64,000 nt of DNA from Escherichia coli (lineage in GTDB: Bacteria; Pseudomonadota; Gammaproteobacteria; Enterobacterales; Enterobacteriaceae): the NCBI RefSeq assembly GCF_024502345.1, contig NZ_JALDNN010000001.1; one strand, 5' to 3'. This document shows, piece by piece, positions 2,278 to 59,179 of the stretch. Under the pieces are notes generated by a model that had not been told where the DNA came from, did not search any database, and saw nothing but the letters and a program-made list of their open reading frames with translations. Each line of letters begins with the position of its first letter. Within the stretch, counting starts at the first letter, position 1. The translations under genes were made by a program, and so were the position numbers.

Positions 2278-2537
2278 GTAAAAATGCAGCGTGATTTTAT
2301 ATGCCTTTGAATGGATTATGCGAAGCGCCTCTAAGGCAGATGAGGAGCAATAGCATGCTGAAGTAGAAGGCTAAATTGTATTGAATCGCTAGCATGTAAT
2401 TTAAGGCAGCTATTTGATTCGAGTCATAAAAGAGCATCTATTTCGGCTAATAAAACCATTGCGAGTGACCTTTTGTCGAAGCATAATTCATCTCGAGCGA
2501 AGTCTTGCTAGTCTTTCATCGGAATGATGACAGGCGC

Positions 2538-2568
2538 AAAAAAACCACCCTGGCAGGTGGTTTTTTTG
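2538..2568. terminator. Bidirectional rho-independent terminator
   Basis: A-run, inverted repeat aaccacc/ggtggtt with loop ctggcag, then T-run (aaaaaaaccaccctggcaggtggttttttt). Confidence 0.6.
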
Positions 2569-2579
2569 TTTGAAGCATA

Positions 2580-2693
2580 CTAAAGAATAATACTTACATG
2601 GATATTACTGACGTTTACTGACAAACCACTTGGACTACCATATGGATAGCCAAAGAGGGCCAGAACGAGAATGCAGTAATAGCACTTCTTCAT
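2580..2693 (-). CDS. Hypothetical small hydrophobic peptide, 37 aa (MKKCYYCILVLALFGYPYGSPSGLSVNVSNIHVSIIL)
   Basis: ATG preceded by SD-like GGAGGAGAT; ORF ends just before the bidirectional terminator at 2538-2568; start overlaps stop of upstream minus-strand ORF 2690-2935 (ATGA); below the 60-aa cutoff of the ORF track. Confidence 0.25.
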   Translation of the reverse strand: MKKCYYCILVLALFGYPYGSPSGLSVNVSNIHVSIIL

Positions 2694-3263
2694 ATCTCCT
2701 CCTGTAAGCAGAGGGCAATTTCCGCCGATATATGCGCTTCTAAGGCGGAGTTACTATTTAGCGAAGTCTTGCCCTGAAATAATGCTCTGTTTAAACGCAA
2801 AGTGATCTGGCATATCACCGAACAGAGAGCCTGAACAACACAACATATAGTATGTCGTTGTTTCTGGTTGCATTTTATGTTGTGTAATACTGGTTTTGCA
2901 TCAAGGATGTTTGAGCTTTTTTTGATATAGCTCAAAGTAAAAAGCAGGGACTACGGATGATAAGGTATTGAAAGCAATGTAAATTTTTTAAAGTTATTGG
3001 TGGCTAAAAAATGCACGGTTTCAATATGGCGGACTTAAATAAGCAATTAAAAAAGTCATAAATATCACTAAAATCATGGTGTTACGTTTTTTGTGGGAGC
3101 TGCGGTGACGCTTAAGTTGATTTGTCATTAAATAAGCCGTGCATGCAACAAGTGAATGTTTTTGCATGCGTCGGGGATGCCCGTTCCAGCTGCTTGCGGT
3201 CAGAGCTGGTGCGGATCCATAGTATCTATGCAACTGCATTAAAACCGACTCATGAAGCGGGCG

Positions 3264-3282
3264 GGCGAGGCGGGGAAAGCAC
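3264..3282. other. cos: P2 cos cohesive-end sequence (19 nt GGCGAGGCGGGGAAAGCAC)
   Basis: Exact string present between gene A and Q, where cos lies in P2; the 19-nt sequence is recalled from P2/186 literature. Confidence 0.6.
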
Positions 3283-3421
3283 TGCGCGCTGGCGGTGGTG
3301 CTGATTTTATTTTTTCAGCGTCTGAGCGCGTCGTGAAGGCGTTTACTTGGCCTGCTGGGCGTTGGTGTGTCTGCGGGGTGTTTTGTGCGGTGGTGAGCGT
3401 GTGAGGGCGTGATGGCGGGGT

Positions 3422-3449
3422 GTAAAAAAGCCGCCCGCAGGCGGCGATG
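3422..3449 (-). terminator. Rho-independent terminator downstream of Q (minus strand)
   Basis: Minus strand reads gccgcctgcgggcggc hairpin followed by a T-run immediately after the Q stop. Confidence 0.55.
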
Positions 3450-3450
3450 T

Positions 3451-12186: not shown

Positions 12187-12637
12187 GTTTAAGCGTTTTG
12201 AAGACCGGCTGACCGGACTTATTGAATCGCTGTCACCGTCAGGGCGTCGGCGACTGGCGGTAGATATTGCGAAGAAACTGCGCCAGCGCCAGCAGCAGCG
12301 AATTAAATTACAAAAAGCCCCGGATGGTACGCCGTATGTACCGAGAAAAAACCAGCCAGTGCGAAATAAGAAAGGCCGGATAAAGCGGGAAATGTTTGCG
12401 AAATTACGCACAAACCGATTTATGAAAGCAACAGGTAGCGAGAGTGCGGCTGTGGTGGAGTTTGCCAGCGGAGTACAACGAATTGCGAGAGTACATCAAT
12501 TAGGGCTTAGGGATAAGCCGGGGCGTAATAGTGCTGTGGTGGAATATCCTGTTCGTGAGTTATTAGGTTTTGACAAGGAATCTATACAATTGATAGAAAA
12601 GGAGTTATTAGTGATTCTATCGAAAGATGTTATATGA
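12179..12637 (+). CDS. S: P2 gpS tail completion protein (152 aa), 3' part AT-rich/mosaic
   Basis: MNEFKRFEDRLTGLIESLSPSGRRRL N-terminus; composition turns AT-rich in 3' third. Confidence 0.85.
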   Translation: MNEFKRFEDRLTGLIESLSPSGRRRLAVDIAKKLRQRQQQRIKLQKAPDGTPYVPRKNQPVRNKKGRIKREMFAKLRTNRFMKATGSESAAVVEFASGVQRIARVHQLGLRDKPGRNSAVVEYPVRELLGFDKESIQLIEKELLVILSKDVI

Positions 12638-13389
12638 GATGGGTGTTTGTGGATAAAAAATTTTCCATTTTGAGAAAAAGAGTAAAGCATTCTCAAAAGA
12701 AAGTTATGGATTGTATTATTGCTGACCATAATGCTGATGTATGTGTGTTATGCGGGAGTTCTGACGATATTACTCGTGAGCACATTATTCCTCAGTGGGC
12801 CTTTGAGTCAAATGCTGAAAAACTTTTAATTAATAAAAAGAATAATCAGTCAACTCATTACATCAAAGCCACTGTACCAGCATGCAGAGTGTGCAATTCT
12901 GATTTGCTGGGAGCGTTTGAGTATAACCTGAAGAAATTTCTTACGGAAAAGAGGGGCGATGAGTTAACAGATTATGAATATGATTGCATCATATGGTGGT
13001 TGCAATACATGGGCTTTAAGTTGCAATTAATGGATTTACGGACCCGCTTTCTCAGGTATAAAGGGGGGGATTATATCCCTTTCCTTGCAAACTTCCCGGT
13101 TGCAATGTTTTGGGGGAATGTCGATACGACACCGGAGGATGTCTTCAGGATTATAAGAAAATCGCGACGCAATCTGATGTCGAAATGGAAGGATAAAAAA
13201 CATAATTCTTTGATGGTTTTTGAAACATCAAACAAGAGTTTTCATTTCTTTCATAAGGTTGATGAATTTATTTTTATTGAAATGCCTCAGGTTAAGAAGG
13301 CGTTTTTCTTCTTTTTTAATAAAGAATTTGACAGCCATGATTTAGCTCATGAGGAGTGTATGAAGATTATAGAGAAGTGCTACAACTAA
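12634..13389 (+). CDS. Accessory protein with HNH-type nuclease motif (251 aa), inserted between S and V
   Basis: CVLCGSSDDITREHIIPQWAF ... ATVPACRVCNSDL resembles a CxxC...H...N...CxxC HNH core; strongly AT-rich; ATG overlaps S stop (ATGA). Confidence 0.6.
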   Translation: MRWVFVDKKFSILRKRVKHSQKKVMDCIIADHNADVCVLCGSSDDITREHIIPQWAFESNAEKLLINKKNNQSTHYIKATVPACRVCNSDLLGAFEYNLKKFLTEKRGDELTDYEYDCIIWWLQYMGFKLQLMDLRTRFLRYKGGDYIPFLANFPVAMFWGNVDTTPEDVFRIIRKSRRNLMSKWKDKKHNSLMVFETSNKSFHFFHKVDEFIFIEMPQVKKAFFFFFNKEFDSHDLAHEECMKIIEKCYN

Positions 13390-18864: not shown

Positions 18865-19673
18865 TCATCTTTGCAATCTTTTTATGTTTATATAAAGTTC
18901 CTCAATCAGCTCTTCCGAATTTTGACTGTAATGCAATGCCCGATGGCAATTCGGGCATAATGCAACACAATTGCTTATGGTGTCAGCACCAGATAAAGAA
19001 AGAGGTATCACATGATACACTTCGAGATATGGGATATCGCCATTTATTAAGAACGGTGTATTTTCACTACATCTTTCACAAACGCCCTTACTCCCTTGCA
19101 ATACACAAGATTTAACAGCAAGATCCCGAATATAAACCTTCTGAACTCTTTCTAATGTTCCAGTTTTTTATGTCCCTCGGACTCGTTCAAAGGAATTTAT
19201 ATTAGCTTACTGACCATTTTACTTAGAACACTCTCATCATTAGTGGCTCGAAAAGCACTGATGTATCTCCGTAGATGATAGGTTTCCAAAATTCAGCACT
19301 ATTAACACTAGGAACATTTATCATTACTCGCTCAGTTCTGTTCCCTGATGGTGCATCTTTTTTAGCAGTACTGTTCAAATGAGTCTGATACATACACATT
19401 TTTTGGGAAATATCGGAAGGGTAGTTTCCCACTAAAGAAAATTACATCATCAGGATGTATTTTTCTTTCCGCTATAGATGGTATATGTCTTCCGGTTGAT
19501 GATGAGGCCAAATACACAACGCCTTTGTTTACCCCGGAATCAATAAGTCGTCCAATGATATAATCGATGGCAATATTATAATCTTTGTTTCTATGCGCCA
19601 GTCATCAGGGCTCAAATATCAGGCCATATACCCCATCTTCTTCACCTACTAGGCACTCAACGTTCAGTTCCAT
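18865..19673 (-). pseudogene. mcrA-like HNH endonuclease gene (type IV 5-methylcytosine restriction family), disrupted by several frame changes
   Basis: Pieces in three frames: MELNVECLVGEEDGVYGLIFEP; AHRNKDYNIAIDYIIGRLIDSGVNKGVVYLASSSTGRHIPSIAERKIHPDDV; ...SGNRTERVMINVP...; intact C-terminal HNH core CERC...PYLEVYHVIPLSLSGADTISNCVALCPNCHRALH. These resemble McrA as recalled from memory. Confidence 0.6.
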
Positions 19674-19877: not shown

Positions 19878-21692
19878 TCACTTCTTACATAGAATGCTGG
19901 GTTTTACTCCGTACTCAACACATGCACTCAAAAATGTATTTATAAGCCAGATTAGCTGAACAGTATAAGGTTTGGCTGACTGATTTCTCTTGATGATTTC
20001 CACCTCATCGATTAACATTTTTTTTCTTAAAAATGGAGCAGCTAATATTAACTCCCTACTAGTTTTCGGACTCTCATTAATTTTGTCAAGAGCTAACTCA
20101 ATGTCATTCCTGGAAGTGTCAATTGGTCTAATTCTACTAATCTGCGTTTGTAAATATTTTGAAGACCATTCATTATCATATTTATCAAGGTAAAGTTCTT
20201 TTGGTGAATGTAATCTGCCAATATTTTTTAAAGCTTGACTTATAACTTCATGAAATTTACTGGCGCCATAGCTCTCTTTTTTAATATATTTAGAATGAAT
20301 AAACTTTATGGATGGATTTCCTGTCGTGATATCCAGCACAATATGATCGGCCCACTCATCATTCATATCATCACAAATTACAATAGCATCTTTATTTGAA
20401 TAGATATTCTCCACTCGTCTAAATAGCGATCTCACTGGAAATCTTTTAATATTTTCTGGATAAGATTGTTTGTCATCTTTCTCTTTTTCCGATCTGATTG
20501 TTGAAAAATCAAAGCTATCATCAAAAACGGACAGGAAAATATTCAAATTATTTAACATCGTTTTATCTTCAAAACACGAACGACCATGATAGCAATATTG
20601 GGGGGAATCGAAGGTTATAGTGAATGGCTTAAACTTGTTAATATATTTACTAAGCGACATTAACTGAGAACCATTTTCACTAATCATTATACCATCGAGA
20701 TATTTGGATACTATAGTCACAACCTTAGTATTGAATCTCAGACGACATTTGAATTTGAATCTTAAATTGGTTAGCGTTTCACCATCTAAGAAATATGATG
20801 ATTTAAATCCATTGAAAAATTTGTCAAGTTCAACAGAACTTAACGTCACCGTTCCATGAGGCACATTTTTTGTTAGTGTAAAAGTATGGGACGTGCCACG
20901 CACCATATCATCCAACTCGCTAAGATCTATAAAAATAGCTTTTGGCTTGACTTTTTTTGCTAATAATTCACTCAAAGTAATAGGGGAAGAGAAACCTGCC
21001 ATTAGCTTACTTGACAAAGAGGCTGTGTTAGATAATTCATTTACTGTAGCTATTGCCCATGAGCAGAAATTAAAAAAATCCACTTTTTTATCTTTGTAGC
21101 CTATTCGTGAAGTATTTGGTGTTAAAGTAAATATGTCATTTCCTGTCTTGACTCTAAATGTCCCTGGAATTGAACGTCCAGTCGTGTTAGGAGAAAGAAT
21201 GCCACTTAGATTTTTTGCTTCCACTGTTCTATTTCTTATCACTGAATCTGACAGTGACATATTCCTCATGCTAATTTTTTCATACTCAGGATTCAGCCTT
21301 CCATTAAAATTTGAAAATTTATCAAACTCAAAGTATTCTATGAACCTTTCCAACTCGCTTTCAATTGCATCAACATTTTTCTTCGAAATTATTAAAAAAT
21401 CCTGAACCTCCAAGATCATTAGATACGCATACTTGCTTTCTGAAATGCTAGTGCCTTGTAGAAATGAAGGCTCTTCTAGAACTTTAAAAGACACCAAAGA
21501 GTAAGTTAAATTCCCATTATCTACAACAACTTCAGATTTAATTTTATTTATAAGAAAGACACCATCTTTTATCGAGGATATGCTTCTAAATAGATTTTTT
21601 ATTTTATTTCTAGATAAAGGTTTTTTTATCTTAAAAAATTGTGCATTTTTTGATAAAATTAAATCATTGATACTGAAAATATATTTAGTCAC
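19878..21692 (-). CDS. Orphan AT-rich protein of unknown function (604 aa), prophage hotspot cargo
   Basis: Long uninterrupted ORF in very AT-rich DNA; GTG start 8 nt after AAGGA; no Walker A, no YxDD box, no HNH seen by eye; C-terminal segment AIVICDDMNDEWADHIVLD...IKFIHSKY could be a nuclease-like acidic/basic cluster. Confidence 0.6.
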   Translation of the reverse strand: MTKYIFSINDLILSKNAQFFKIKKPLSRNKIKNLFRSISSIKDGVFLINKIKSEVVVDNGNLTYSLVSFKVLEEPSFLQGTSISESKYAYLMILEVQDFLIISKKNVDAIESELERFIEYFEFDKFSNFNGRLNPEYEKISMRNMSLSDSVIRNRTVEAKNLSGILSPNTTGRSIPGTFRVKTGNDIFTLTPNTSRIGYKDKKVDFFNFCSWAIATVNELSNTASLSSKLMAGFSSPITLSELLAKKVKPKAIFIDLSELDDMVRGTSHTFTLTKNVPHGTVTLSSVELDKFFNGFKSSYFLDGETLTNLRFKFKCRLRFNTKVVTIVSKYLDGIMISENGSQLMSLSKYINKFKPFTITFDSPQYCYHGRSCFEDKTMLNNLNIFLSVFDDSFDFSTIRSEKEKDDKQSYPENIKRFPVRSLFRRVENIYSNKDAIVICDDMNDEWADHIVLDITTGNPSIKFIHSKYIKKESYGASKFHEVISQALKNIGRLHSPKELYLDKYDNEWSSKYLQTQISRIRPIDTSRNDIELALDKINESPKTSRELILAAPFLRKKMLIDEVEIIKRNQSAKPYTVQLIWLINTFLSACVEYGVKPSILCKK

Positions 21693-24116: not shown

Positions 24117-24392
24117 ATGAACAAAGAAAATGTGATTACCCTGGACAATCCGGTCAAACGTGGTGAGCAGGTCATCGAACAGGTCACGCTGATGAAACCC
24201 AGTGCGGGGACGCTGCGCGGTGTCAGTCTGGCTGCGGTCGCAAACTCCGAAGTCGATGCACTGATTAAAGTGCTGCCGCGCATGACGGCACCGATGCTGA
24301 CCGAGCAGGAGGTCGCCGCACTGGAACTGCCTGACCTTGTGGCGCTGGCCGGTAAGGTGGTCGGTTTTTTGTCGCCGAACTCGGTGCAGTGA
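24117..24392 (+). CDS. E: P2 gpE tail assembly chaperone (91 aa)
   Basis: 91 aa between tube and tape measure. Confidence 0.85.
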   Translation: MNKENVITLDNPVKRGEQVIEQVTLMKPSAGTLRGVSLAAVANSEVDALIKVLPRMTAPMLTEQEVAALELPDLVALAGKVVGFLSPNSVQ

Positions 24393-27478: not shown

Positions 27479-28641
27479 TGCTGGATGCGCTGACATTTGA
27501 TGCAGGCAGTACGCTGACGCCGGATTACATGCTGATGCTCGACAGCAGGGATATTACCGGCAATATCAGCGACCGTCTGATGAGCATGACCCTGACGGAT
27601 AACCGGGGCTTTGAGGCTGACCAGCTTGATATTGAACTGAACGATGCCGACGGGCAGGTCGGGCTGCCGGTTCGTGGCGCTGTCCTGACGGTGTATATCG
27701 GCTGGAAAGGTTTTGCCCTGGTATGCAAAGGGAAATTTACCGTTGATGAGGTTGAACACCGGGGCGCACCGGATGTGGTCACCATCCGTGCCCGGAGTGC
27801 AGATTTTCGTGGGACGCTCAATTCCCGCCGGGAAGGCTCCTGGCATGACACCACGCTCGGTGCGATTGTTGAGGCGATAGCCTCCCGTAACAGGCTGGAA
27901 GCCAGTGTCGCTCCGTCACTGGCCGGAATTAAAATCCCGCACATCGACCAGTCGCAGGAGTCTGATGTGAAATTCCTGACCCGTCTTGCTGAACGCAACG
28001 GCGGCGAGGTGTCGGTAAAAATGGGAAAACTGCTGTTTCTCAAAGCAGGGCAGGGGGTGACGGCCAGCGGTAAAAAAATCCCGCAGATTACCATCACCCG
28101 CAGCGACGGCGACCGTCATCATTTTGCGATTGCTGACCGTGGAGCTTACACCGGCGTAACGGCAAAGTGGTTACACACCAAAGACCCGAAGCCGCAAAAG
28201 CAGAAGGTAAAACTGAAACGCAAAAAGAAAGAAAAACACCTGCGCGCACTGGAGCACCCGAAAGCGAAACCGGTCACGCAGAAGAAAGCGCCAAAAGTAC
28301 CGGAAGCGCGCGAAGGTGAATACATGGCCGGTGAAGCTGACAACGTTTTTGCCCTGACTACGGTATATGCCACAAAAGCGCAGGCCATGCGCGCCGCTCA
28401 GGCAAAGTGGGACAAACTGCAACGGGGCGTCGCGGAGTTCTCCATCAGCCTGGCTACCGGTCGGGCAGATATTTACACGGAAACACCGGTTAAAGTGTCA
28501 GGCTTTAAGCGCGTCATAGACGAGCAGGACTGGACAATCACTAAGGTGACACATTTTCTGAATAATAGCGGCTTCACGACGTCCTTAGAGCTTGAGGTCA
28601 GGCTTTCTGATGTGGAGTACGAAACAGAAGATGATGAGTGA
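27478..28641 (+). CDS. D: P2 gpD tail protein (387 aa)
   Basis: 387 aa, size and position. Confidence 0.9.
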   Translation: MLDALTFDAGSTLTPDYMLMLDSRDITGNISDRLMSMTLTDNRGFEADQLDIELNDADGQVGLPVRGAVLTVYIGWKGFALVCKGKFTVDEVEHRGAPDVVTIRARSADFRGTLNSRREGSWHDTTLGAIVEAIASRNRLEASVAPSLAGIKIPHIDQSQESDVKFLTRLAERNGGEVSVKMGKLLFLKAGQGVTASGKKIPQITITRSDGDRHHFAIADRGAYTGVTAKWLHTKDPKPQKQKVKLKRKKKEKHLRALEHPKAKPVTQKKAPKVPEAREGEYMAGEADNVFALTTVYATKAQAMRAAQAKWDKLQRGVAEFSISLATGRADIYTETPVKVSGFKRVIDEQDWTITKVTHFLNNSGFTTSLELEVRLSDVEYETEDDE

Positions 28642-28722
28642 TGTTTATTATTTATCTGTTTGTTTTATAAGGATAAATTAACTAAAATGGCACCATCAAC
28701 AAAACCGGAAGAGGTGCTCGCG

Positions 28723-28941
28723 ATGTTTCATTGTCCTTTATGCCAGCATGCCGCACATGCGCGTACAAGTCGCTATATCACTGACACGACAAAAGAGCGT
28801 TATCACCAGTGCCAGAACGTGAATTGCAGCGCCACGTTCATCACTTATGAGTCGGTACAGCGATACATCGTTAAGCCGGGAGAAGTCCACGCCGTAAGGC
28901 CGCACCCGTTGCCGTCAGGGCAGCAAATTATGTGGATGTAA
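28723..28941 (+). CDS. ogr: P2 Ogr late-gene transcriptional activator, zinc-finger (72 aa)
   Basis: MFHCPLCQHAAHARTSRYITDTTKERYHQCQNVNCSATF has the Cys4 arrangement; last gene before att. Confidence 0.9.
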   Translation: MFHCPLCQHAAHARTSRYITDTTKERYHQCQNVNCSATFITYESVQRYIVKPGEVHAVRPHPLPSGQQIMWM

Positions 28942-28952
28942 TTACAAACAGA

Positions 28953-28979
28953 AAGCCCCTCAGTCGAGGGGCTTTTTTG
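28953..28979 (+). terminator. Rho-independent terminator after ogr
   Basis: agcccctc-agtc-gaggggct hairpin followed by a T-run. Confidence 0.65.
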
Positions 28980-29042
28980 TCGATGTGGTCAATGTGTGGA
29001 CGTGACCAGAAATAAATCCTTTTATTTCATCGTATTACGCGT

Positions 29043-29069
29043 AAAAAATAAGCCCGTGTAAGGGAGATT
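29043..29069. other. attR: Probable P2 attachment core (prophage/host junction) overlapping the cyaR 3' end
   Basis: AAAAAATAAGCCCGTGTAAGGGAGATT matches the 27-nt P2 att core as recalled; lies exactly where phage sequence gives way to host backbone. Confidence 0.5.
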
Positions 29070-29129
29070 ACACAGGCTAAGGAGGTGGTTCCTGGTACAG
29101 CTAGCATTTTATGGGTTATGTTTTTCAGC
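29043..29129 (-). ncRNA. cyaR: CyaR (RyeE) Hfq-dependent sRNA
   Basis: Minus strand reads GCTGAAAAACATAACCCATAAAATGCTAGCTGTACCAGGAACCACCTCCTTAGCC...terminator hairpin and U-run; sits between yegQ and the ogr end as in K-12. Confidence 0.8.
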
Positions 29130-29213
29130 GAAACGGATGATAACCTTAATAAATGCAGCTGTATGTGATCGGTTTCTAAGAATTTTCCATCCGGGAAAAA
29201 TAATCGAAATTAA

Positions 29214-30575
29214 TCACTTACCGTGTGGGTTACGCGTGGTTTCCCCGGAGAAATTACGCATCAGCAGCGCGTAATTTAGCTCAAGATCCTGCGGCACCGG
29301 GAGCCACACAGTATAACCATCGCCTGGTGCTACCGGCATAGCTTCGCCTTTGGCGTTTTCCATGTGCTCAAGGGTAAAGTTAATGTTGCCTTGCGGCGTC
29401 ATCAGCTCAAGGCTGTCGCCAACGGAGAATTTATTTTTCACTGCTACCGCCGCGAGGTCCCCCTTGCGCTCACCGGTAAACTCACCAACAAACTGCTGGC
29501 GGTCAGAAACCGAATAACCGTATTCGTAGTTCTGATAATCGTCGTGAGTATGACGACGCAGGAAACCTTCGGTATAGCCACGATGCGCCAGACCTTCCAG
29601 AGTTTCCAGCAGGCTGGTATCGAACGGTTTGCCCGCAGCGGCATCATCGATAGCTTTACGATAAACCTGTGCGGTGCGTGCGCAATAGTAGAAAGATTTA
29701 GTACGGCCTTCGATCTTCAGCGAATGCACGCCCATTTTGGTCAGGCGCTCAACGTGGGCGATGGCACGCAGATCTTTCGAGTTCATAATGTAAGTGCCGT
29801 GTTCGTCTTCAAACGCGGTCATATACTCGCCCGGACGCTGGGCCTCTTCGATCATAAACACTTTGTCGGTTGGCGCGCCAATACCAAGCGTCGGCTCAAC
29901 GTTTTGCACCGGAATCGGCTCGTACTTGTGTACGATGTTGCCGACGTCATCTTCTTTACCTTCCTGTACGTTGTACTCCCAGCGGCAGGCATTGGTGCAG
30001 GTTCCCTGGTTCGGGTCGCGTTTGTTAATGTAGCCCGAGAGCAGGCAGCGGCCGGAGTAGGCCATGCACAGTGCGCCGTGAACGAAGATCTCGATCTCCA
30101 TATCCGGCACCTGATTGCGGATCTCTTCAATCTCTTCCAGCGACAGCTCGCGAGAGAGGATCACGCGGGTCAGGCCCATTTGCTGCCAGAATTTCACCGT
30201 CGCCCAGTTTACGGCGTTAGCCTGCACCGAGAGGTGGATCGGCATTTCAGGGAAGTGCTCACGCACCAGCATAATCAGCCCTGGATCGGACATAATCAGC
30301 GCATCCGGCCCCATTTCCACCACCGGTTTCAGGTCACGGATAAAGGTTTTCAGCTTGGCGTTGTGCGGGGCAATGTTGACCACGACATAAAACTTTTTCC
30401 CCAGCGCGTGGGCTTCATTGATGCCGAGCTGAAGATTTTCGTGGTTGAATTCGTTGTTGCGCACACGCAGGGAGTAACGCGGCTGGCCCGCATAAACAGC
30501 ATCTGCGCCATAAGCGAAAGCGTAACGCATATTTTTCAGCGTTCCCGCCGGGGAAAGGAGTTCCGGTTTAAACAT
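29214..30575 (-). CDS. yegQ: U32-family peptidase-like protein YegQ (453 aa)
   Basis: 453 aa; MFKPELLSPAGTLKNMRYAFAYGADAVYAG N-terminus typical of U32 family. Confidence 0.9.
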   Translation of the reverse strand: MFKPELLSPAGTLKNMRYAFAYGADAVYAGQPRYSLRVRNNEFNHENLQLGINEAHALGKKFYVVVNIAPHNAKLKTFIRDLKPVVEMGPDALIMSDPGLIMLVREHFPEMPIHLSVQANAVNWATVKFWQQMGLTRVILSRELSLEEIEEIRNQVPDMEIEIFVHGALCMAYSGRCLLSGYINKRDPNQGTCTNACRWEYNVQEGKEDDVGNIVHKYEPIPVQNVEPTLGIGAPTDKVFMIEEAQRPGEYMTAFEDEHGTYIMNSKDLRAIAHVERLTKMGVHSLKIEGRTKSFYYCARTAQVYRKAIDDAAAGKPFDTSLLETLEGLAHRGYTEGFLRRHTHDDYQNYEYGYSVSDRQQFVGEFTGERKGDLAAVAVKNKFSVGDSLELMTPQGNINFTLEHMENAKGEAMPVAPGDGYTVWLPVPQDLELNYALLMRNFSGETTRNPHGK

Positions 30576-43199: not shown

Positions 43200-43340
43200 A
43201 CGCTGAAACGGGAAAGCCCCTCCCGAGGAAGGGGCCATAAATAAGGAAAGGGTCATGATGAAGATACTCATCATCGTGGTGCTCTTAGTGATTAGCTACC
43301 CAGCATACTAAGACTACCAGGGCGGGGGAAACCCCGCTCT
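43200..43340 (-). ncRNA. Sib antisense sRNA, unit 1 (approximate boundaries)
   Basis: Sib RNAs are about 140 nt and fully antisense to ibs; the hairpin upstream of ibs on the plus strand would serve as the minus-strand terminator. Confidence 0.45.
43255..43311 (+). CDS. Ibs-family type I toxin peptide (MMKILIIVVLLVISYPAY)
   Basis: Tiny hydrophobic ORF with SD-like aaggaaaggg upstream, in repeat unit 1. Confidence 0.7.
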   Translation: MMKILIIVVLLVISYPAY

Positions 43341-43527
43341 ACCCTCACTCCTGAAAGTATGCCTTCACGTTCAGAATGTCAATCCGCAGGCTTTGCAGTC
43401 TGCGATCCTGCCAGCAAATATTCTTTGCGAGACGTTACGCAATAATCACAGAGGAAACTATTTTGTTCACGCGTTAGCGATAGACTGAATTCAGGGCGAA
43501 AGGAGGTAAGCCGACGATTTCAGCGGG

Positions 43528-43668
43528 ACGCTGAAACGGGAAAGCCCCTCCCGAGGAAGGGGCCTTAAATAAGGAAAGGGTCATGATGAAGTGGATCATC
43601 ATCGTGGTGCTCTTAGTCATAAGCTTCCCGGCTTACTAAGACTACCAGGGCGGGGGAAACCCCGCTCT
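43528..43668 (-). ncRNA. Sib antisense sRNA, unit 2 (approximate boundaries)
   Basis: As unit 1. Confidence 0.45.
43583..43639 (+). CDS. Ibs-family type I toxin peptide (MMKWIIIVVLLVISFPAY)
   Basis: Same architecture in repeat unit 2. Confidence 0.7.
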   Translation: MMKWIIIVVLLVISFPAY

Positions 43669-43855
43669 ACCCTCACTCCTGAAAGTATGCCTTCACGATA
43701 AGATTGTCAATCTGCAGGCTTTGCAGTCTGCGATCCTGCCAGCAAATATTCTTTGCGAGACGTTACGCAATAATCACACTGGAAACTATTTTATCCGCAA
43801 GTCAGCGATAGACTGCATGCATGGCGAAAGGAGGTAAGCCGACGATTTCAGCGGG

Positions 43856-43996
43856 ATGCTGAAACGGGAAAGCCCCTCCCGAGGAAGGGGCCTTAAATAA
43901 GAAAAGGGTTATGATGAAGCACGTCATCATACTGGTGATACTCTTAGTGATTAGCTTCCAGGCTTACTAAGAACACCAGGGGGAGGGGAAACCTCT
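43856..43996 (-). ncRNA. sibA: Sib antisense sRNA, unit 3 (approximate boundaries)
   Basis: As unit 1. Confidence 0.45.
43911..43970 (+). CDS. ibsA: Ibs-family type I toxin peptide (MMKHVIILVILLVISFQAY)
   Basis: Same architecture in repeat unit 3; closest to the K-12 IbsA sequence as recalled. Confidence 0.7.
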   Translation: MMKHVIILVILLVISFQAY

Positions 43997-44189
43997 CCCT
44001 AACCCTCACTCCTGAAATTATGTCACTCCGCCCTTAGTGTCAATCGACGGCTCTCCGTTCTTGCGAGGCGAATAGCAAAATTTTCTGCGCCGCCGGGACT
44101 AATTCTGAAAGTTTCTTCGTTTGCTCTTATTTCATTATTGCAGTCGGTATGATACCGGACCTCAATAATTCTCTAAGAAAGGATTTCTT

Positions 44190-58699: not shown

Positions 58700-59167
58700 A
58701 GTAAGTACAAAACCTATTCGTTGTATGACAAATGTCACAATTCGATCATGGATAAATCGGGGCAAAAATGCAATGTTGCAGCACTATTTATCTCATATTA
58801 TTTGAGGGTAATAACCTCACATTATCCCTGAATTAAAAGTGGTAATAATAAAACATTATTTAAGAAATATCGCATGTGGAGACACTATATTAAATATTGT
58901 CAACCTAAAGAAACTCCTAAAAACCATATTGAATGACACTTAATATAATTCTTAAAAATAGCCAATTACCGAATTGTTATCTTGCCTGCTATTCCGTTAG
59001 CTGTAACACTTCCTCCTGCATTATTGGAAAGCCAATATTCAATTACCATAATGTCACCTTATATTCGGAAGTTAATTTCCGTAATAACCCTTTCTCATCA
59101 ACGACTGCATGCTGAGAGGGTGTGAAAAATTAAACTAAATCAGTGTATTGGTAGCTAAAAAGCCAGG

Positions 59168-59179
59168 GGCGGTAGCGTG
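59168..59179 (+). promoter_or_regulatory. ops element (GGCGGTAGCGTG) within a JUMPstart-like leader upstream of wza
   Basis: Exact 12-mer GGCGGTAGCGTG about 180 nt upstream of the wza start codon. Confidence 0.6.

Follow-up and report, generated by a model that had tools for sequence, protein, structure and literature searches.

The attachment (att) core of phage P2 and the remnant that Escherichia coli K-12 carries at the cyaR site were described around 1989-1992, and the primary attachment site of P2 in E. coli is the one designated locI in the classical P2 literature. Other phages use the 3′ ends of structured RNAs as targets, with 186 in tRNA-Ile and Fels-2 and SopE-phi in ssrA (PMC3448106), and Salmonella prophages have been placed at ryeB/sdsR (PMC3603311; PMC3333887). 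P2-type integrases have been described as integrating mostly 'between other genes' (PMC3448106), a description that overlooks that the intergenic site of P2 is an sRNA gene. The gene in question, cyaR (ryeE), encodes an sRNA of E. coli and Salmonella whose regulation by cAMP-CRP is established (PMC3333887), and one passage of Bobay, Rocha and Touchon (PMC3603311) describes E. coli ryeE, with reference to Wassarman et al. (2001), as 'previously known to be targeted by phages'. Our search of the literature on cyaR as a prophage or integration site found nothing more explicit than that statement.

Here, we analysed a 64-kb window (the whole stretch of E. coli DNA under study, 64,000 nucleotides), in which a first-pass annotation made from the letters alone had placed a prophage/host junction inside the 3′ terminator of cyaR. 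The observation was confirmed and its interpretation supported: we consider it close to certain that the junction is the attR of a P2-like prophage at the primary E. coli P2 site, with a core that forms the 3′ end of cyaR. The attR arrangement at the cyaR terminator is correct, already known and common. In line with P2 attP, the primary site and the K-12 remnant, the core and the Int sites of the P arm are identical, and the order ogr, terminator, P arm, core, cyaR and yegQ is kept. Unlike P2 itself, the prophage in the window is a relative at ~97% identity, with substitutions in the IHF region and different cargo; unlike the K-12 remnant, it comprises 29 kb of intact phage genes.

Boundary between phage and host sequence

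The 27-nt att core, AAAAAATAAGCCCGTGTAAGGGAGATT, occurred as a single copy in the window at 29043-29069 (+). This attR copy, to which no strand was assigned as an att site, also forms, on the minus strand, the final 27 nt of cyaR. No further match was detected in the window even when 3 mismatches were allowed, and none of 100 shuffles gave one. The string had been named as the P2 att core in the first-pass annotation, and the identification proved accurate: positions 24356-24382 of the P2 genome (AF063097), annotated 'attP' and 'Int attP core', are identical to it at 27 of 27 bases. The alignment of window positions 28600-29069 with P2 23913-24382 (97.2%) stopped at the last base of the core, and for P2 as well as the other phages with the same core, the alignment to the window reached 29069 only. 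Prophage-free E. coli genomes matched the window from 29043 only, with genome H135 being 100% identical over 29043-29260. Phage homology thus ends at 29069 and host homology begins at 29043, so that their overlap is exactly the core, as expected of an att junction; the core is bracketed by the P2 boundary and the host boundary, and the junction lies at the 3′ end of cyaR, where it had been placed.

Whether the overlap of core and cyaR could be a mere coincidence of a short A/T-rich string, with the true junction elsewhere, is decided by the same data. For a 27-mer, the number of chance matches expected in the window is zero, phage homology and host homology each stop precisely at an end of the core, and the same core lies in cyaR of several Kluyvera species, one of which, K. 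intermedia, has a divergent P2-like prophage that uses it. We attach practically no probability to this explanation; a chance origin is ruled out by the uniqueness of the core together with both homology boundaries, and the attR reading is retained.

On the phage side, the last prophage gene is ogr, the P2 late-gene activator (28723-28941, +), assigned through the P2 annotation and through the NCBIfam equivalog NF007241, which scored 177.6 bits (cutoff 116) and covered positions 1-72 of 72. Moving the P2 annotation (AF063097) onto the window with an offset of +4687 placed the rho-independent terminator of ogr and the F operon at 28952-28975 (+; P2 feature 24265-24288). The Int arm-type sites of the P arm, with their TGTGGTCA and TGTGGACG repeats, were placed at 28980-29007 (P2 protein_bind 24293-24320) and the IHF region of the P arm at 29011-29044 (P2 protein_bind 24324-24357), both without strand. 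The arm-type sites have the same sequence as in P2, and the alignment revealed several substitutions relative to P2 in the IHF region. The ogr terminator is a symmetrical hairpin with an A-run before it and a T-run after it, called on the minus strand as well by the terminator scan; it may therefore act in both directions, and its symmetry suggests that it may insulate both the ogr and the cyaR units. The proposal that the ogr and cyaR terminators face each other within about 100 bp was upheld, since the centres of the two hairpins are ~101 nt apart and the transcript 3′ ends are separated by ~64 nt, a space that holds the Int P-arm and IHF sites.

On the host side, the cyaR gene (87 nt; 29043-29129, −) was identified by the Rfam model CyaR_RyeE (RF00112), whose match at 29046-29131 (−) reached 100.7 bits (E 6e-19; gathering score 47 bits) over model positions 1-85 of 85. 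The reverse complement of 29043-29129 is an 87-nt RNA, GCUGAAAAAC...GGGCUUAUUUUUU. Its intrinsic terminator forms a hairpin with an 11-bp stem and a 6-nt loop at 29051-29078 (−), with a minimum free energy of −20 kcal/mol (z = −2.9), and a terminator scan independent of the fold gave the same hairpin, from 29078 to 29051. The U-rich tail, UAUUUUUU, follows at 29043-29050 (−), and its last U is the first base of the core. The annotated coincidence of core and terminator holds for the loop, the entire 3′ arm and 2 nt of the 5′ arm (29051-29069 of the hairpin) as well as for the U-tail, but not for the other 9 of the 11 nt of the 5′ stem arm (29070-29078), which are host-only sequence outside the core. 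'Coincides with the terminator' is thus slightly overstated, the core overlapping about two thirds of it. In this respect the locus departs from tRNA-type targets: cyaR presents the terminator of an Hfq-type sRNA and not a tRNA-like fold, and the core is short, at 27 nt.

Upstream of the gene, pattern matching identified a putative CRP site, the half-consensus TGTGA-N6-TCTAA (29164-29179, −), whose centre lies ~42.5 nt before the 5′ end of cyaR; TATCAT occupies −13 to −8. A generic sigma-70 promoter scan called none for cyaR, as expected for an activator-dependent promoter. The flanking host gene is yegQ/trhP (29214-30575, −), supported by NCBIfam NF011996 (876 bits) and by the annotation of homologous loci, and baeR and baeS lie further to the right. 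The gene therefore agrees with the CyaR/RyeE family (RF00112) in its full-length match, in having the same 87 nt as other E. coli, in its synteny with yegQ and in the CRP-like site upstream; there is no difference at the RNA level, and only the DNA past the U-tail is phage-derived.

Prophage body, cargo and left end

The visible P2-like (Peduovirus) prophage occupies 1-29042 (+), as delineated by phage alignments and the ORF map. Its genes are ordered A, Q, P, O, N, M, L, the lysis, tail and baseplate genes, H, G, a cargo island, FI, FII, E, T, U, D and ogr, and 72-77% of window positions 1-25000 aligned at ~96-97% identity to P2-family phages, R18C, fiAA91-ss and Wphi among them. Among 5426 complete E. 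coli genomes, the best match to the junction region was 98.9%, in a remnant-bearing strain, and the best match to the A region was 97.8%.

The ATG of gene A, which encodes a 758-aa gpA matching phrog_91, is base 1 of the window, and attL consequently lies off-window. Three kinds of sequence served as proxies for it: a complete prophage inserted at this locus, assemblies that encode an identical gpA, and unoccupied sites. The full prophage of E. coli Ecol_AZ159 has two exact cores (locus L004, 865-891 and 32850-32876) in the order yegS, yegR, core, int, C, cox ... A ... D, ogr, core, cyaR, yegQ. When the 758-aa gpA of the window was searched for by exact sequence, it turned up on contigs from many assemblies, and all four of those examined have yegR followed by an exact core beside int, ~3.68 kb upstream of A, with a gene for a 337-aa Phage_integrase beside attL as well as C and cox; the closest of these assemblies differs from the window by 85 mismatches in 10,277 nt. 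Given this spacing, the prophage would measure ~32.7 kb if the window genome is organised like these close relatives, from which alone int, C, cox and the second core are known here, the attL of the window genome being outside the window.

The junction might instead belong to a defective remnant, of the K-12 D′-ogrK or the QML220614 int′-U′-D-ogrK type, in which case the sequence would be a frozen attR without an active recombination partner. Remnants with the same junction are common, those of K-12 C600 and QML220614 being counted within the 1128 attR-bearing genomes reported below, and the off-window position of attL fits a remnant too. Against this, P2-family genes run open and colinear over 29 kb, from A to ogr, and the identical-gpA assemblies examined all have int, C, cox and an exact attL core. 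We give the remnant explanation little credence and regard the junction as the right end of a prophage that is probably complete.

The prophage also carries several segments of its own interest. An AT-rich island at ~18.8-22.3 kb (GC 32-39%) contains a 604-aa ORF (19878-21692, −) between the tail-fibre assembly gene G and the sheath gene FI, an interval that we take to be the Z/fun cargo locus of P2. This ORF matched the candidate defence family PDC-S71 end to end in PADLOC (E 1e-218), and no PHROG or NCBIfam family matched it. Next to it, 18865-19101 (−) and 19223-19432 (−) matched profile positions 200-277 and 89-151, respectively, of one Type IV methyl-directed restriction model, and these two short ORFs look like a broken defence gene. 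The 1.17-kb gap between gene A and the portal gene Q (2278-3450), presumably the old/tin hotspot of P2, has a GC content down to 39% and two small ORFs only, of 81 and 72 aa; no PHROG, PADLOC or NCBIfam family was matched in it, the Rfam matches were all sub-threshold, and the homologous stretch of Ecol_AZ159 is likewise unannotated. A third segment, which occupies the place of P2 orf30 between S and V, is a 251-aa ORF (12634-13389, +; 38% GC) with a full-length match to phrog_10503, a family of unknown function.

Regeneration of cyaR and its new flank

The unoccupied sites of E15 and SA186 consist of yegR, a single core, cyaR and yegQ, and cyaR at the window attR is base-for-base the cyaR of these empty sites. 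The identity of the gene in occupied and empty sites implies that integration regenerates the 3′ end of the sRNA, and the earlier proposal to this effect is thereby substantiated. An unoccupied site in K-12 had been suggested for this comparison; E15 and SA186 supplied the empty, single-core site, but K-12 (C600) is not empty, as it holds the cryptic remnant D′-ogrK (ogrK-yegZ) adjoining cyaR. In C600, the left core breaks off after ...GTGTA, where it joins the interior of gene D, and the right junction (ogrK, P arm, core and cyaR) equals that of the window, bar one SNP in the IHF region. Published work on CyaR used K-12 strains, and since K-12 shares this junction, the cyaR of those studies sits in an attR context; K-12 is in effect a published positive control for a northern blot of CyaR in such a context.

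Junctions of the attR type, scored when at least 80% of window positions 28850-29260 matched in one piece, were present in 1128 of the 5426 complete E. coli genomes, K-12 included, and those of the attL type in 810 of 5426; both counts include remnants, for example that of QML220614. As an arrangement common to about one fifth of complete E. coli genomes, the junction itself yields no new biology. It provides a clean teaching example of a phage att core that carries the 3′ end of an sRNA gene, and for annotation the prophage boundary belongs at the 27-nt core, with cyaR to be called intact and not disrupted.

In the mechanism that we propose, P2 Int, a tyrosine recombinase, would act together with IHF to carry out strand exchange between attP, which in the phage genome is flanked by ogr and int, and attB, whose 27-bp core is identical to that of attP. 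As the phage core duplicates the final 27 nt of cyaR exactly, the recombinant attR would rebuild the gene unchanged: its promoter, its body and the larger part of its 5′ stem arm come from the host, and the remainder comes from the core. At the other end, the attL core beside int would be an orphan cyaR 3′ fragment that has neither promoter nor 5′ arm; the P′ arm and int come after it. Past the U-tail, host DNA gives way to the phage P arm, which carries the IHF and Int arm sites, and beyond that to the ogr terminator facing cyaR. Both the catalysis by Int and IHF and the unchanged expression of CyaR would follow from established P2 biology. The outcome resembles integrations at the 3′ ends of tRNA, tmRNA and sRNA genes, in which the att core duplicates the RNA 3′ end, the gene survives and an orphan 3′ fragment is found at the other prophage end.

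Around cyaR, integration changes only the DNA that follows the U-tail: the next 6 nt read AUGCAU in empty sites and ACGCGU at the window junction. As these bases differ, there is formal room for an effect on termination efficiency. Integration would then not be neutral, with the P-arm flank and the convergent ogr/F-operon transcription unit ~64 nt off altering CyaR termination, the heterogeneity of its 3′ end or its level, a possibility to which the convergence and closeness of the two terminators also lend some weight. However, the hairpin and the U6 tail are unchanged, K-12 has an unchanged cyaR beside the same attR-type flank, with CyaR being an established sRNA (PMC3333887), and the ogr hairpin looks bidirectional and would insulate both units. 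An altered CyaR has, in our judgement, a slim chance, and we favour neutral integration with a regenerated cyaR.

One strain departs from this picture at the locus itself. In E. coli DETEC-P622 (L023, 3288-3985), IS1 lies between yegR and yegQ and homology to the window resumes only at ~29131; cyaR appears to be disrupted or displaced in this strain.

A P-arm relic beside the unoccupied site

On the yegR side of the core, both where the site is empty and at attL, the adjoining ~50 nt represent a degraded copy of the phage P arm. The two align along TCGATGTGGTCAATG...GTGACCAG with 35 identities in 50 positions (z = 8.7 relative to shuffles), and the copy includes one Int arm-type repeat. The relic of Escherichia sp. 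MOD1-EC7003 is nearly complete and takes in the IHF region, with 48 of 64 positions identical (z = 12.9), and the unrelated flanks of the core in Kluyvera and in E. coli E69 had no likeness to the P arm (z ~0-1). The relic lies off-window, at 452-530 of L005, 622-700 of L007, 786-864 of L004 (the Ecol_AZ159 locus) and 594-660 of L018, and the B-arm stretch that holds it was matched in 5405 of the 5426 complete E. coli genomes. The presence of a P-arm relic at the 'empty' attB is solid.

Further traces of the core were found around the relic. Directly upstream of it is a partial core, T/GAAGGGAGATT, corresponding to the right end of the core, which stands at the 95th percentile of shuffled maxima in a region-wide scan. 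The divergent strain E69 (L009) has yegS, 86 nt, a perfect core and cyaR, without yegR and without the relic, a 0.98-kb yegR segment being absent from it. It shares homology with typical E. coli (91% in yegS) up to a point at which the typical sequence contains a weak core-like stretch (~19 of 27), whose score of 5 equals the median of shuffled maxima in the region-wide scan and is not significant alone; only its position is suggestive. An E69-like arrangement was found in at most one of the 5426 complete genomes (H150, in two pieces spanning ~800 nt).

On balance, we see roughly even odds that the 'unoccupied' E. coli P2 attB is a layered fossil of older integrations and not a virgin site. 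It is plausible, though not proven, that the entire 0.98-kb yegR segment represents one fossil integrated element. If true, yegR would lie inside such an element, each P2 integration at this locus would recombine beside a resident arm-site relic, and the relic might sway site preference or permit homologous exchange beyond the 27-nt core. The fossil P arm is the only angle of the locus that is even mildly new, and it bears on how long P2-like phages have used the cyaR terminator. YegR was also considered as phage cargo, a candidate that we rejected: a tblastn search against 50,697 phage records matched only two deposits, both with host flank.

At attL, the 6 nt to the left of the core vary among lysogens (L019-L022), reading atgcat, atgcgt or acgcgt, and the acgcgt form corresponds to the phage-side bases at the window attR. 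This variation suggests occasional exchange or conversion beyond the 27-nt core, possibly helped by the P-arm relic.

Outside E. coli, the exact 27-nt core was also found in cyaR of Kluyvera species (L008, L011, L012, L014-L016 and, in K. intermedia, L017 973-999). The K. intermedia core is abutted by a divergent P2-like attR with an ogr-type terminator and a P arm identical to that of P2 at 51 of 64 positions, and in the other Kluyvera the left flanks of the core are unrelated. A 9.7-kb contig (L013) of a metagenome-assembled genome (MAG) labelled Collinsella sp. ends in an attR identical to that of the window, cyaR included; most likely, prophage DNA of E. coli was mis-binned into this actinobacterial MAG.

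In the host portion of the window, three SIB RNAs (Sib antitoxin) lie in tandem on the minus strand at 43240-43382, 43568-43710 and 43896-44043, with a spacing of ~330 nt and scores of 140-145 bits each; K-12 has two copies at the same locus. A JUMPstart element (RF01707; 57 bits) was detected at 59141-59179 (+), which we take to be probably upstream of the colanic-acid wza cluster.
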